From the IMG/VR virus record IMGVR_UViG_3300047509_000177, positions 27,382-91,381 of that record: a stretch of 64,000 nt of DNA; one strand, given 5' to 3'. Source of the DNA: a virus. This document shows, in pieces, positions 16,478 through 60,419 of this stretch. The notes beneath the pieces are model-generated. The model saw nothing but the letters and a program-made list of their open reading frames with translations. It was not told where the DNA came from and did no database searches. A program made the position numbers and the translations under genes. Position 1 is the first letter of the stretch, and each line of letters begins with the position of its first letter.

Positions 16478-16739
16478 AAAGGGAAAGCATTCAGGATATA
16501 CAGAGCTAGGAGCAATCCAATTTAGAAGACTTAGGAAAGGAGATATTGAGTGGTGTTCTAACGAACATTATATTCCTAAGCATAAAGATAAGAGAAGTCC
16601 TAATGCAGGATCAGGATCAAGAAAAAATGCTACTCATACAGTATTTATATTAGGACTACATTCTGCTTATGTATGCGCTAAGTGTAGAAAAGAATGGATA
16701 GATACTTGGAAAAAATATTCACCAATAGAGTATGCATAG
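16470..16739 (+). CDS. Hypothetical protein, possibly Zn-binding
   Basis: CxxxH and CxxC; overlaps the helicase stop. Confidence 0.5.
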   Translation: MAKKGKHSGYTELGAIQFRRLRKGDIEWCSNEHYIPKHKDKRSPNAGSGSRKNATHTVFILGLHSAYVCAKCRKEWIDTWKKYSPIEYA

Positions 16740-16835
16740 TGCGCCTGGGGAGAATTGAACTCCCGACCTCCTGTTTGAAAGACAGGCGCTCTTTGAGACC
16801 CCGAAGGTTCTCGTTTACCACTGAGCTACAGGCGC
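16740..16835 (-). tRNA. Atypical tRNA: anticodon UUC, Val/Lys-like body, extra hairpin in the D-loop
   Basis: GCGCCTG/CAGGCGC acceptor, A73, GCTC/GAGC D-stem, CCTGT-CTTTCAA-ACAGG anticodon arm, GGGAG-TTCAATT-CTCCC T-arm. Confidence 0.8.
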
Positions 16836-16841
16836 ATGAAG

Positions 16842-16924
16842 TGCGGGAGACAGGATTCGAACCTGCAAGCCCTTTCGGACAGACCCTCTTAAGGGGTCCG
16901 CGTCGCCAATTGCGCCACTCCCGC
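16842..16924 (-). tRNA. tRNA-Leu(UAA)
   Basis: GCGGGAG/CTCCCGC, A73, GACCC-CTTAAGA-GGGTC, long variable arm. Confidence 0.92.
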
Positions 16925-16983
16925 AAGAAATCGGCCGAGAAGAATATCATAATAGATTCTCCCCGGCCGAGTAAATCTACTTA

Positions 16984-17334
16984 TTAACCGCTATAGCCAT
17001 CATCCTTGTTACCAGAAATGACGCCAGTACCAGCCAGCTTAGACAGCTTACGAGCCACGTTACGAGCATCGACACCAAGAGCCTTGGCGATGTCCGTGGT
17101 CTTCACGGCGGCAGAACCTGGCGCAGAGGTAAGCTTACCAACAGTCTCTATAACCTGCTCATCAGTAACAACAGAAGTTGACACTCCCTTGCCGCTTTTC
17201 TTGAGCTTCTTGAGAAGTGCGGCAAGTTCATCGCGCTCATCAACTAGGCCAGCAACCTTCGACTTGATCTCATCTTCAACCTTCTGAAGCTTGCCCTCAA
17301 TTTCTTGGGCTAGCTTATCTGCAACTGCGCTCAC
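16984..17334 (-). CDS. Coiled-coil plus winged-helix DNA-binding protein
   Basis: TTDIAKALGVDARNVARKLSKL wHTH; good RBS; GC-richer codons. Confidence 0.75.
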   Translation of the reverse strand: MSAVADKLAQEIEGKLQKVEDEIKSKVAGLVDERDELAALLKKLKKSGKGVSTSVVTDEQVIETVGKLTSAPGSAAVKTTDIAKALGVDARNVARKLSKLAGTGVISGNKDDGYSG

Positions 17335-17379
17335 GATATTCTCCTCTGATTAGATTTGGGGTATAAAGAACGTAAGAAC

Positions 17380-17409
17380 ACAATAGCATACATAGAAAGT
17401 GAATGTCAA
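17380..17409 (-). promoter_or_regulatory. Promoter for the wHTH gene and the two downstream tRNAs
   Basis: TTGACA-18 bp-TATTGT with extended TG on the minus strand. Confidence 0.6.
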
Positions 17410-17761
17410 GGACTTTCTGAAAGAAGTTCTAGATTCTAGTTCTTAGGGGGCGTTTTTGGCTTGGATGCTAGAATATACGGCGGTTTGTGTGGACTGAAAC
17501 AAACAATTTAGAATATGAATCTAAAAGGAGATTATAAAAAAGAATGTCTTTAGTAGTGGATAATAGAAATAGATTACATGCTGTTGAGCAATTGAAAAAG
17601 GGACTTAAGAATAAGGATAACCTAGATGAGGGCGTTGAGGAGCTGAGGATGCTTGCAGCAATAGCCAACTCTTTAATATATGTAGGGGATACTTTGAAAG
17701 AATTAAATGATAATATGAAAGAAGAAGATTGGTCTAATTCAGATAATAGAATAGGAGCCTA

Positions 17762-46520: not shown

Positions 46521-46605
46521 TGCGGCGGACAGGATTCGAACCTGCACGGTGCGATGCACCCCGACTTGATGAGGGCCGGTGCGTCTACCATTCCGCCACC
46601 GCCGC
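46521..46605 (-). tRNA. Leu-type tRNA body with a 9-nt anticodon loop centred on CAU
   Basis: GCGGCGG/CCGCCGC, A73, GCGGAATGGTAGACGC, CCGGC-CCTCATCAA-GTCGG, V-arm GGTGC-ATC-GCACC. Confidence 0.8.
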
Positions 46606-46761: not shown

Positions 46762-46855
46762 GGAGGGCGCTCCTAAGTGGTGTGTGGGGCCGGGCCTTCA
46801 TCCCGGTGACCCGTCTGAGACACGGCGGCGATTGGTTCGATTCCAACGCCCTCCG
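46762..46855 (+). tRNA. Allo-tRNA-like gene (8/4 fold, selC-like appearance), loop CCUUCAU
   Basis: 8-bp acceptor GGAGGGCG/CGCCCTCC, G73, 4-bp T-stem TTGG-TTCGATT-CCAA, long variable arm. Confidence 0.7.
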
Positions 46856-47001
46856 CAAGCTTCAGCCGAGCTTGTAGAACAACAGCCTATCATTAGATTA
46901 TTTGTGCGGTACGTTACAAACTATCTTTGTGCTCTATGCCACTATCTAGTTTCGTCGTTAGTTTCGTAGATGCTGATTCTGTTGATTGATATTGTCTGGT
47001 C

Positions 47002-49295: not shown

Positions 49296-50603
49296 TTATA
49301 CCTTAGTTTTCAATAAAGGAAACATTATAACATCTCTAATATTCTTCTTTCCCAAGAGTAGCATACAAAGACGATCTATTCCAATACCAACTCCGGCCCA
49401 AGGCAGTGCTCCCATTTCTAGAGCTTCGATGTAGTTTTGATCGTATGGGTCATATTCTCGTATATTTTCTCCAAATTCATTTGTGAAAAACTTTTTGCTT
49501 TCTGGTTCCTTTAGGCGCGTTTCCTGCTCATGTGGGTCATTCAAGTCTGATGCTCCAGAAGCAATCTCCATATCATCTATATATAGCTCCCATGCCTCTG
49601 CTCTGTTTCTATGTCTACCTTTTCCAATTGATTTTCTACTCAAGGGCCAATCAGACGATGGTAAGTCTGCATCGAAAATCATAGGATACTCATGAGGGCA
49701 TTTTATTGAACATGACACATTTCTAATTAAATCTTCAGTAAAACAAATCATATCTAGGTCAGTCTTACAACTCTCAAATATCTCTAGATTAGTGAACTCT
49801 GGGTTGTGTTCGGGACTAATTCCCTCATTTCTAAAGCACCTTGAGAAAGCATATACTCTATCGAACCCGCCAACGAGTGCGCGCTTAAGGTATAGCTCTG
49901 AGGAAATAGATAGGAAAAATTGTTGTCCAAGAGTATTGTGTTGTGTTGTAAATGGCTTCGCAGTTGCTCCACCATAGATGGGTTGGAGTATGGGAGTTTC
50001 AATCTCAACGAAGTCTCTTTCATTCAGATACTTCCTTATCTCAAATACTATTTCTGCTCTCTTCTTAAATACCTCGCGCGAATCCGCGCTGGACATCAGA
50101 TCCTGCTCGCGGTGCCTGTACTTATGCTCAGGGCTTTTCAGGCCATTTCGCTTATCGGGAGGCTCTCGTAGTGCCTTGGCTAAAAGCGTGAAATTAGAAA
50201 TTAAAAGAAGGGGCTTCCCACGCGGATTCTGGCCTAGTGCCCCTTCTACTCCGACCATATCTCCAAGATCGCATTTTATAACGCTATCAAGGACTATTTG
50301 AGATTTTGCGAAATCTAGTTTTCCTGACTCTATGGGGCCATAAATTAGTTGGATTGATCCCGTCTGGTCAAATAAGTCAAAGAATATAGTCTCTCCGTGA
50401 TGCCTTCGAGCAGATATTCTTCCTGCTATCTTACAAAAATTATCTGAAGGAACATCAACTTTTTCTCTAGTAAGGATTTCATGGAGAGTTACGGTTGATG
50501 GTCGATTTAAAACATATTGAATTGTTTCTCGGCCAGGAAAATCGCGCGGGTAGGGGTTAGAATTATTCTGTATCTTCTTTAGTCTCTCTATAGAATTACT
50601 CAC
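49296..50603 (-). CDS. lysS: Divergent class II lysyl-tRNA synthetase paralog
   Basis: OB-fold anticodon domain, EIETP..Q..GGA, ELYLKR, FRNEG..HNPEFT, GIGIDR; pocket residues altered. Confidence 0.85.
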   Translation of the reverse strand: MSNSIERLKKIQNNSNPYPRDFPGRETIQYVLNRPSTVTLHEILTREKVDVPSDNFCKIAGRISARRHHGETIFFDLFDQTGSIQLIYGPIESGKLDFAKSQIVLDSVIKCDLGDMVGVEGALGQNPRGKPLLLISNFTLLAKALREPPDKRNGLKSPEHKYRHREQDLMSSADSREVFKKRAEIVFEIRKYLNERDFVEIETPILQPIYGGATAKPFTTQHNTLGQQFFLSISSELYLKRALVGGFDRVYAFSRCFRNEGISPEHNPEFTNLEIFESCKTDLDMICFTEDLIRNVSCSIKCPHEYPMIFDADLPSSDWPLSRKSIGKGRHRNRAEAWELYIDDMEIASGASDLNDPHEQETRLKEPESKKFFTNEFGENIREYDPYDQNYIEALEMGALPWAGVGIGIDRLCMLLLGKKNIRDVIMFPLLKTKV

Positions 50604-59441: not shown

Positions 59442-60419
59442 TCACAAGAGTTTGATCTGCGGCGTGAGCAGATTCCGGTAGGGATGAGGTTCGGTCACGA
59501 CTCCCTGCTCGATCAGCCGGTAGAACAGCAGGCCGCGAGAGCGGCTTGCGCGGCGGTTGAAGCGGAACACGTACTCGTCGCAGTAATAGTCCAACTGCTC
59601 GCGCGACATGCCGCCCTGATGCGTGCCGAGCAACCACCGCTTGAGCAGACTGGCGACGCGGTGAGCGTGCGGCATCGTGACGTGCGCGTCCGCTGCCTCG
59701 GGGTCGCTCATGTTCGTAACTTCATGCTGGTAGCCGTAGCGGCTGATCGAGCTGTAGCTCCCGAAGGCGTCCGTGTGGATGATCGAGCCACGCGCCACGT
59801 TGTCGAGGATGAACTCGATGAGCGTCTCGGCCTTAGTGTCCGGCACGCGAGCAAGTCGAAGGCGTCCAGCCTTGAGACGTTCGCCAGTGCGGCCGTGAGC
59901 CTCGACCGCGATCACAACGATCGCCTTCCCGTGTGGCGAGCGACCACCCGCCTTCTTGGTCTTGATCCCGCCGATAAACGTCTCATCCACCTCGACCACA
60001 ACACCGGGACCACCGATCATGTCCCGGCCAGGGCGCACCATCGCACGGCGCAGCTTGTGCATCCACGCCCACGCCGTCTGGTAGGAGCCGAAGCCAAGCT
60101 CACGCTTCAACCCGAGCGCGCTCACACCGTTCTTCTGACTAACGACGTGCCACATGACGTGGAACCACACACGCAGCGGATAGCGTGTCTTGTCGAAGAT
60201 CGTGCCAGCCGTCACGCTCGTGCGCTTGCGACACGCCGTGCAGCGCATAAGGCCGCTGCCCATGCGCCAATAGTCGCCTATGACACCGCAATGCGGGCAC
60301 ACAAAGCCGTTGGGCCATCTGATCTTCTCGACGTACGCGAGACACGCCTCCTCGCTATCGAACCGCTCGATGAACTCGCTGAAGGTGCGGGGGTAATCCG
60401 CGCTCGCAGCGGGGGTCAT
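59442..60419 (-). CDS. IS1595-family transposase, apparently intact
   Basis: RWPNGFVCPHC Zn ribbon, SVTAGTIF, EVDET, HTD, SLLKRWLLGTHQG, EYVFRFNRR. Confidence 0.95.
   Translation of the reverse strand: MTPAASADYPRTFSEFIERFDSEEACLAYVEKIRWPNGFVCPHCGVIGDYWRMGSGLMRCTACRKRTSVTAGTIFDKTRYPLRVWFHVMWHVVSQKNGVSALGLKRELGFGSYQTAWAWMHKLRRAMVRPGRDMIGGPGVVVEVDETFIGGIKTKKAGGRSPHGKAIVVIAVEAHGRTGERLKAGRLRLARVPDTKAETLIEFILDNVARGSIIHTDAFGSYSSISRYGYQHEVTNMSDPEAADAHVTMPHAHRVASLLKRWLLGTHQGGMSREQLDYYCDEYVFRFNRRASRSRGLLFYRLIEQGVVTEPHPYRNLLTPQIKLL

Follow-up and report, generated by a model that had tools for sequence, protein, structure and literature searches.

The 96-nt gene on the minus strand at the locus described here raises the question of what use a phage could make of a tRNA that bears a glutamate anticodon on a body without glutamate marks and carries an additional hairpin in its D-loop. 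To our knowledge, the four-armed cloverleaf with a small D-loop is among the most constant shapes in biology, and the sole accepted extra arm is that of the variable region. The gene was found in a phage record of 91,381 bp from IMG/VR, estimated to be 98% complete, of which the last 64 kb (the window) were analyzed. Gene products encoded in the window include a tail fibre, helicases, a primase, a DnaE-type polymerase and FtsK-like proteins. The answer that we favour, and to which we assign a probability of roughly 70%, is that the gene provides a codon-supply tRNA-Glu(UUC) of host design whose fifth arm would be retained, acting by the mechanism given below.

Structure of the five-armed tRNA gene and its cassette

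The first-pass annotation had described a tRNA with a UUC anticodon and an extra UUCG hairpin in the D-loop, and this was confirmed by a full-length match to Rfam RF00005 (67.7 bits against a gathering score of 29, model positions 1-71), by direct reading of the strand and by the homologues. The RF00005 alignment placed a 25-nt insertion within the D-loop. ARAGORN called the same gene at 16739-16835, labelled it 'tRNA-???' and left the isotype unassigned. As read directly from the strand, the acceptor stem is GCGCCUG/CAGGCGC with discriminator A73, the D stem is GCUC/GAGC and the D-loop consists of AGUGGUAAAC followed by GAGAACC-UUCG-GGGUCUC and AAA, while the anticodon arm is CCUGU-CUUUCAA-ACAGG, the variable loop has 5 nt (AGGUC) and the T arm is GGGAG-UUCAAUU-CUCCC. 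The coordinates of these and the other features are presented in Table 1.

Table 1. Positions of the five-armed tRNA gene, of neighbouring and related features, and the basis on which each was called.
Feature	Sequence	Position	Strand	Basis or remark
Five-armed tRNA(UUC), 96 nt, no encoded CCA	window	16740-16835	minus	Rfam RF00005, 67.7 bits; own covariance model R1, 109.2 bits
Anticodon loop CUUUCAA, anticodon UUC at 16779-16777	window	16775-16781	minus	shared by each of the 18 UUC members in the alignment
Extra arm, 7-bp stem (one A.G mismatch), cUUCGg tetraloop	window	16795-16812	minus	strand reading, homologue covariation, RNAalifold
tRNA-Leu(UAA), 6 nt upstream of five-armed tRNA	window	16842-16924	minus	ARAGORN; Rfam, 49.8 bits
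Weaker promoter-like site before tRNA-Leu, TTTACT-18-TATGAT, 9/12	window	16946-16975	minus	consensus match only
HTH-like ORF, 116 aa, heading the minus-strand cassette	window	16984-17334	minus	Pfam HTH matches all below curated cut-offs; phrog_37426
Best promoter-like site, TTGACA-18-TATTGT with TG extended, 10/12	window	17380-17409	minus	consensus match only
Class II LysRS, 435 aa	window	49296-50603	minus	Pfam PF00152 and PF01336
GluRS of G001	L321	1501-2853		insertion at residues about 206-212; likewise L320, L322, L386
Scaffold copies with UUC	nine viral contigs
Scaffold copy with UUU	L382	11813-11922		viral
Scaffold copies with UUU	L339 (three copies), L340			host genomes
Scaffold copy with CCU	L376	2151-2248		viral
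Scaffold copy with CCU	L378	3503-3600		viral
Scaffold copy with UGC	L381	2235-2329		G412, closest IMG/VR relative of the window phage

Including the 18-nt hairpin, the D-loop of the window tRNA measures 31 nt, compared with an ordinary size of about 7-11 nt. The hairpin stands after G18, G19, U20 and AAC and before AAA(21), and the insertion point, 3' of G18G19, is the length-variable part of the loop (region 20a/20b). All of the bases that build the L shape and the elbow (U8, A14, G18, G19, A21, U54, U55, C56 and A58) were kept, and they did not vary in alignment A2, T-loop position 57 being the exception. The hairpin sequence occurred once within the window, and the idea that it is a repeated mobile palindrome was rejected on that ground.

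The body under the glutamate anticodon is not that of a tRNA-Glu, as had been claimed at first reading. E. coli GluRS determinants comprise U11-A24, U13-G22..A46 and the lack of residue 47 (PMC9976931). In place of this augmented D helix, the window tRNA has C11-G24, C13-G22 and the 5-nt variable loop AGGUC, residue 47 being kept. The anticodon-loop determinants of the same set (U34, U35, C36 and A37; PMC9976931) are present in its loop CUUUCAA.

The cassette that spans 16740-17410 has a GC content of 50% and lies on the minus strand, and it is flanked by plus-strand genes of 36-40% GC. Because the spacer between them is 6 nt on the same strand, the five-armed tRNA and tRNA-Leu(UAA) are very likely co-transcribed, as the first-pass annotation had supposed. 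The 'near-consensus promoter' that it placed before tRNA-Leu was overstated, since the site matches consensus at 9 of 12 positions and three sites of this class were found against 1.3 in shuffles. Both tRNAs are preceded by the HTH gene, and the best promoter-like site (17409-17380) is upstream of that gene.

Two further tRNA-like genes of the window were noted. One (46762-46856, plus strand) was called by ARAGORN as a 95-nt 'tRNA-Glu(ttc)', falls below the Rfam threshold, combines a long variable arm with C at position 33, and looks like an allo- or Sec-type tRNA; it lies within a 54% GC island alongside other unusual tRNAs. The other (46521-46605, minus strand; Rfam 45.2 bits) has a CAU anticodon in a loop enlarged by an insertion, on a Leu-like body with a long variable arm.

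Distribution of the family and the reading of GAA in the host genus

Contigs and genomes were scanned with a degenerate pattern of the D-arm and CUUCGG. Three viral contigs contained the same architecture with a UUC anticodon and with hairpin stems that differed but compensated, and ARAGORN failed to call any of the three. A stricter scan of viral contigs, with the D-arm and anticodon arm of the phage as exact pattern, gave no match. The 96-nt design was found in at least 120 species-level Solirubrobacterales/Solirubrobacteraceae genomes and in at least 120 soil or peat metagenome contigs. There were 26 distinct pattern matches, five of which were false positives (L054, L208, L232, L240 and the contig-end fragment L225), and nearly all true members measured 96 nt. 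Three of these false positives (L054:2656-2759, L208:356-448 and L225), from Verrucomicrobiota-labelled and other contigs, are tRNAs with a duplicated start, in which a tRNA 5' half (GCCAGUGUAGCUCAGUGGUAGAGC...) is followed by a GC hairpin and then by a second start of the same tRNA.

A covariance model of the five-armed tRNA (R1) was then scored on genome samples. In one Solirubrobacteraceae genus, that of the complete reference chromosome G001, exactly one copy, at about 119 bits, was present in 132 of the 151 genomes sampled (131 of 150 without G411, an unpublished genome among the 132). Across the family sample a copy was found in 4 of 121 genomes, and across the class sample in 1 of 151, namely the starting genome, with 0 of 150 others. 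With R1 and a wider viral scan, the viral contigs with the five-armed scaffold numbered 13. The host locus is of a housekeeping kind: genes for FGGY kinase and polysaccharide deacetylase flank the tRNA on one side, those for an alpha/beta hydrolase, a transketolase and a transaldolase on the opposite side; hydrolase and transketolase again adjoin the tRNA in the divergent member L114. Judged from these genomes, the five-armed design is not private to the phage and appears to be the standard GAA tRNA of one soil actinobacterial genus.

Covariation of the hairpin in homologues had been named as a check on the structure, and 18 distinct homologues kept the hairpin with compensatory changes. Over these 18 sequences the five-helix structure was paired in 98.8% of cells and the four standard helices in 100%. 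The extra helix was the most variable one, with five of its seven pairs changed on both sides and 95% of cells paired, and the sole unpaired class in it was A.G at one position. No shuffle of 500 reached the observed values, and slid registers dropped to 38-52% paired. RNAalifold recovered the D-loop hairpin when no structure was given; for the invariant D stem it favoured another pairing, which the two phage copies in the alignment break. The phage copy was 76% identical to the commonest host form and 84% to the closest (L114). It differs from the commonest form at 23 positions, 19 of them in stems, and 10 of the 11 pairs touched still pair, 8 having changed on both sides, a pattern that marks a gene maintained in working order.

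In the complete genome G001 a Glu-type tRNA body was found only with a CUC anticodon. This host tRNA-Glu(CUC) has a Glu-type D arm and a 4-nt variable loop, and its gene gave one full-length match per genome in 5 genomes. In the RF00005 search of G001, the UUC anticodon was carried by the five-armed gene and by a 71-nt tRNA (L284, G001:C1:419040-419110) with a 6-nt D-loop without GG and a non-Glu body. The 71-nt tRNA, which is probably on a mobile element, was rejected as the true GAA reader, being sporadic (3 of 41 genus genomes, one full length). When the canonical tRNA-Glu(UUC) of a sister genus was used as query, no match was obtained in the 41 genus genomes. Since the RF00005 whole-genome search, which returned 46 tRNAs in G001, missed tRNA-Val(UAC) (L338, G001:C1:2855573-2855646), the failure of three approaches to find a canonical host tRNA-Glu(UUC) falls short of proof of its absence. 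The five-armed tRNA would be the only conserved candidate GAA reader found in the host genus. At 8.5 kb from the tRNA-Glu(CUC) gene, its 3' end recurs as a 25-nt copy of 96% identity (G001:C1:1448868-1448892), which resembles the distal end of an element inserted into that tRNA.

To establish the meaning of GAA, 4589 ortholog alignments of ORFs from host loci were used. Host GAA stood against ortholog codons for Glu at 62.8%, D 8.6, A 6.8, Q 5.3 and K 2.3, and the profile of GAG in the same alignments was indistinguishable (Glu 65.3, D 10.6, A 6.8, Q 4.5, K 1.8), indicating that GAA is glutamate in the host genus. The host genus has one PF00749 gene (a GluRS, with no GlnRS) as well as GatB. 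One GluRS must therefore serve the five-armed tRNA, the canonical tRNA-Glu(CUC) and tRNA-Gln, and this enzyme is presumably non-discriminating.

Probable role in codon supply and competing explanations

The GC content is 41% in the phage and 69% in the host loci. The codon GAA occurs 52.5 times per 1000 codons in the phage compared with 8.3 in the host, and makes up 65% and 15% of Glu codons, respectively; the corresponding frequencies are 23.7 and 0.27 for TTA and 24.9 and 1.9 for AGA. The window tRNAs include UUC, two UAA and UCU, by which the phage covers GAA, TTA and AGA, and the codons served by the other named tRNAs of the window are scarce in the host but abundant in the phage (Leu UAA/TTA, Arg UCU/AGA and Ser AGA/TCT). 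With its cognate GAA far commoner in the phage than in the inferred host, the five-armed tRNA has the property of a codon-compensating tRNA, and the gap in GAA use supports what the first-pass annotation had listed as its third alternative, a Glu supplement for GAA-rich genes. No GluRS gene was found in the phage. At GAA positions of the phage LysRS, 63% of close homologues have Glu and 5% Lys (GAG positions, 69% Glu), and at those of the phage helicase the values are Glu 43%, Asp 13% and Lys 9% (GAG positions, 62/17/4); these alignments are small, with 13-16 positions per protein, and neither protein points to Lys.

The codon-supply reading follows from the canonical UUC tRNA not having been found, from GAA being glutamate, from the gap in GAA use and from the phage having no GluRS. 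Transcription would most likely be joint with that of the upstream HTH gene and tRNA-Leu(UAA), and the five-armed transcript would then be trimmed by host enzymes. Because CCA is not encoded, it would be added after transcription. As the phage has no GluRS, glutamate would be attached to the tRNA by the one GluRS of the host, and the phage copy would supply decoding of GAA, a codon that this 41% GC phage uses about six times as much as the host. All of the elbow-building nucleotides being kept, the mature tRNA most likely retains the hairpin as a fifth arm that projects away from the elbow. Against the codon-supply reading, two complete relatives of the phage do without the five-armed tRNA, and the same host GluRS must also charge the canonical-bodied tRNA-Glu(CUC), which leaves no evident need for an arm on the UUC isoacceptor.

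The large uncultured soil Solirubrobacteraceae genus is the probable host of the phage. This assignment was inferred mainly from the tRNA itself, and it is supported by the origin, in Solirubrobacterales, of the nearest named cellular relative of the phage LysRS; phage and host differ by 28 points in GC content, an unusually wide gap that speaks against it. An IS1595-family transposase gene (59442-60419, minus strand; DDE_Tnp_IS1595 and zinc ribbon) lies in an island of 55-65% GC at 59-62 kb of the window. Comparison of this GC-rich IS with the presumed host genus gave one weak match in 101 genomes, and the element was uninformative as a host link.

The 3' half of the window tRNA is 86% identical to tRNA-Val(UAC) of two Streptomyces phages. 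The proposal that the host lacks tRNA-Val(UAC) and that a Val-like body replaced it was rejected, as tRNA-Val(UAC) exists in G001. The best hairpin-less matches of R1 were tRNA-Arg(UCU) genes of sister genera, at about 74 bits. In-situ remoulding of an ancestral tRNA-Arg(UCU) was not supported, the five-arm locus having no synteny with the Arg(UCU) loci of the sister genera. Because the body lacks Glu marks and these nearest hairpin-less relatives share no synteny with it, it looks from the sequences as if the five-armed gene replaced an ancestral tRNA-Glu(UUC) by a tRNA of foreign body.

For the arm itself, our best guess, which we rate at less than even odds, is that host machinery recognizes it, either as a positive mark for GluRS on a body without the usual ones or as a feature that blocks GatCAB or other synthetases; the chief alternative is that the insertion is tolerated and needs only to fold on itself. 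ArgRS reads position 20, and the arm could keep off ArgRS or GatCAB. It could also compensate for the missing GluRS determinants. GatCAB has been reported to use D-loop features as antideterminants (PMC9976931). An insertion of 7-12 residues, about 20 residues upstream of the KLSKR loop of GluRS, was present in all four arm-bearing genomes examined, whereas none of 27 arm-less family members had it, nor did the two solved GluRS included in the alignment (8i9i and 7k86); the unpublished genome G153 was omitted from this alignment. As the arm-bearing genomes form one clade, the insertion is a lead and does not constitute evidence of co-evolution.

The wider viral scan with R1 revealed this scaffold with four anticodons (Table 1), in every case with a hairpin of 17-51 nt in the D-loop; its consensus consists of a GCGCNNG acceptor, a GCUC D stem and AGUGGUNAA followed by the hairpin and AAGAGC. 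The presence of the arm on UUU, CCU and UGC copies speaks against a purely glutamate-specific role for it. The UGC copy of G412 has G3-C70 and no G3.U70, and should therefore not be a substrate of AlaRS, although the GCA positions of the G412 helicase align with Ala. It is conceivable, but doubtful, that the fifth arm is the identity handle of an Arg-like scaffold which phages re-aim by changing only the anticodon, the GluRS insertion being the reader of the arm, and that at least some members are charged by way of arm or body rather than anticodon. If this were so, such members would represent natural arm-directed recoding or mistranslation. A viral contig was also noted to hold, beside a five-armed tRNA(UUC), a 123-nt tRNA-like gene (L377:1003-1125; 53 bits to R1) with apparent insertions in the D-loop and the anticodon arm.

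That the hairpin stays in the mature tRNA is probable, as judged from the features of the gene. It could instead be a short intron that is excised, the halves being ligated to give an ordinary tRNA of about 73 nt. The fixed insertion site and the varying length (17-51 nt) and sequence of the insert recall some archaeal and red-algal tRNA introns, and covariation would equally be expected of an intron recognized by its structure. However, there is no bulge-helix-bulge: the unpaired AAC and AAA both adjoin the base of a single 7-bp helix, and two 3-nt bulges 4 bp apart are not present at the junctions. The splicing endonuclease (PF01974) was found in none of four genomes (the phage and three of the host genus), whereas it was detected in four archaeal controls. 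The insert matched no Rfam family of introns or ribozymes, and 18-25 nt are far too small to self-splice. Stem length stays at 7 bp, and among chromosomal copies the cUUCGg cap hardly varies; together with the conserved AAC and AAA flanks, these features fit a structural element, and we consider excision improbable.

An anti-defence role, in which the phage copy replaces, or acts as a decoy for, a host tRNA-Glu(UUC) that is cleaved or depleted during infection, is likewise unlikely. Phage tRNAs that rescue translation after anticodon-nuclease cleavage are a known pattern, so that such a role has precedent in other systems, and the gene is patchily present among related phages and sits in a small, GC-richer cassette with the look of an acquired one. 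The anticodon loop CUUUCAA, however, is identical to that of the host and would therefore offer no escape from a nuclease that reads this loop. Simple supply explains the other tRNAs of the window, whose codons (TTA, AGA and TCT) are host-rare and phage-common, and no defence or nuclease gene was linked to the five-armed tRNA in this analysis.

We think it very unlikely that the gene is a relic that is in decay or has no part in translation, for instance a fragment captured from a host tRNA, the remnant of an integration site or a processing signal. ARAGORN gave no isotype, two complete relatives lack the tRNA, and the arm-bearing copy of G412 has a UGC anticodon unsuited to its acceptor stem, all of which such a relic might display. 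Against this, the five helices are intact with eight pairs changed on both sides relative to the host form, all bases of tertiary interactions are kept, the anticodon loop is invariant and the R1 score of 109.2 bits is the highest among viral copies.

The first-pass annotation had favoured the five-armed tRNA as the dedicated partner of the phage LysRS, with the arm as handle; on this reading, GAA would be decoded as Lys or some other residue. In its favour, a class II LysRS is indeed encoded in the window, the body of the tRNA is of a generic Lys/Val/Arg kind, and scaffold copies with a UUU anticodon exist. This LysRS family is kept in about 30 related contigs, many of about 90 kb, at 56-66% identity, and its nearest named cellular relative (Solirubrobacterales) is 46% identical over the core. 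The helicase as single-protein query found no relatives in viral contigs, and an alignment of 30 helicase homologues as query found three; about ten other relatives of about 90 kb are known from the protein database only. Both genes are present in the window phage (UUC) and in G412 (UGC), LysRS is present without the tRNA in G413 (complete) and G414 (98% complete), and the tRNA (UUC) is present without LysRS in G415 and G416. Since each gene occurs without the other and chromosomal copies of the tRNA exist in more than 130 host species, a dedicated pair is ruled out. The anticodon UUC, moreover, is neither UUU nor CUU (U35, U36) as a LysRS cognate would have, C36 not being a Lys anticodon base, and GAA positions in the phage LysRS and helicase align with Glu and not with Lys, which leaves this reading with hardly any probability.

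Significance and comparison with known systems

It thus appears that in a large genus of soil bacteria the working GAA tRNA bears an extra helix in its D-loop, and that their phages copy it faithfully. If the arm is retained, then a bulky appendage on the elbow side is tolerated by the ribosome, EF-Tu, RNase P, the CCA-adding enzyme and GluRS, and the family offers a natural test case for the rebuilding of tRNA identity after replacement by a foreign body. Because standard finders miss or mislabel five-armed genes, tRNA complements and analyses of phage codon supply are incomplete. The five-armed motif is a sharp host-prediction marker for uncultured phages, and the naturally tolerated insertion site in the D-loop may serve tRNA engineering. 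A literature search that missed most subscription journals turned up no publication describing a bacterial or phage tRNA with an arm in its D-loop.

With the canonical bacterial tRNA-Glu(UUC), the five-armed tRNA shares U33, the UUC anticodon, A37, G1-C72 and, by inference, the task of reading GAA as Glu; it differs in having C2-G71, C11-G24, C13-G22, residue 47 and the 18-nt hairpin. Phage-encoded tRNAs that offset codon usage are familiar from the tRNA sets of T4-type phages and actinobacteriophages. The present gene resembles them in serving a codon six times commoner in the phage and in having neighbours for A/U-ending codons (Leu UAA and Arg UCU), but unlike them it copies an architecture specific to the host lineage and is missed by standard finders.

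Natural and active departures from the standard cloverleaf are also seen in tRNA-Sec and the allo-tRNAs, which have altered helix lengths, with a 6-bp D stem and an 8/4 or 9/3 acceptor/T arrangement, and the unusual D-arm of tRNA-Sec is read by its partner enzymes (PMC7609411). None of these adds a separate D-loop hairpin, and no such case is given in that review (PMC7609411). The tRNA-Arg(UCU) of the sister genera has a UCU anticodon, retains A20, lacks the hairpin and has no synteny with the five-arm locus, but its acceptor stem (GCGCCCG/CGGGCGC), D stem and A73 are identical and its anticodon stem is very similar.

Archaeal and red-algal tRNA introns occur at non-canonical sites, including the D-loop. 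The hairpin resembles these introns in being short and structured and in occupying a constant site of the D-loop; unlike them, it has no bulge-helix-bulge, it belongs to a bacterial lineage, and no endonuclease was found in phage or host. The class II tRNAs (Leu, Ser and bacterial Tyr) have a long variable arm that is tolerated by the ribosome and elongation factors and serves as an identity element. They share with the five-armed tRNA a natural fifth helix, which in class II tRNAs leaves the variable region (44-48) and in the five-armed tRNA leaves the D-loop (20a/20b).
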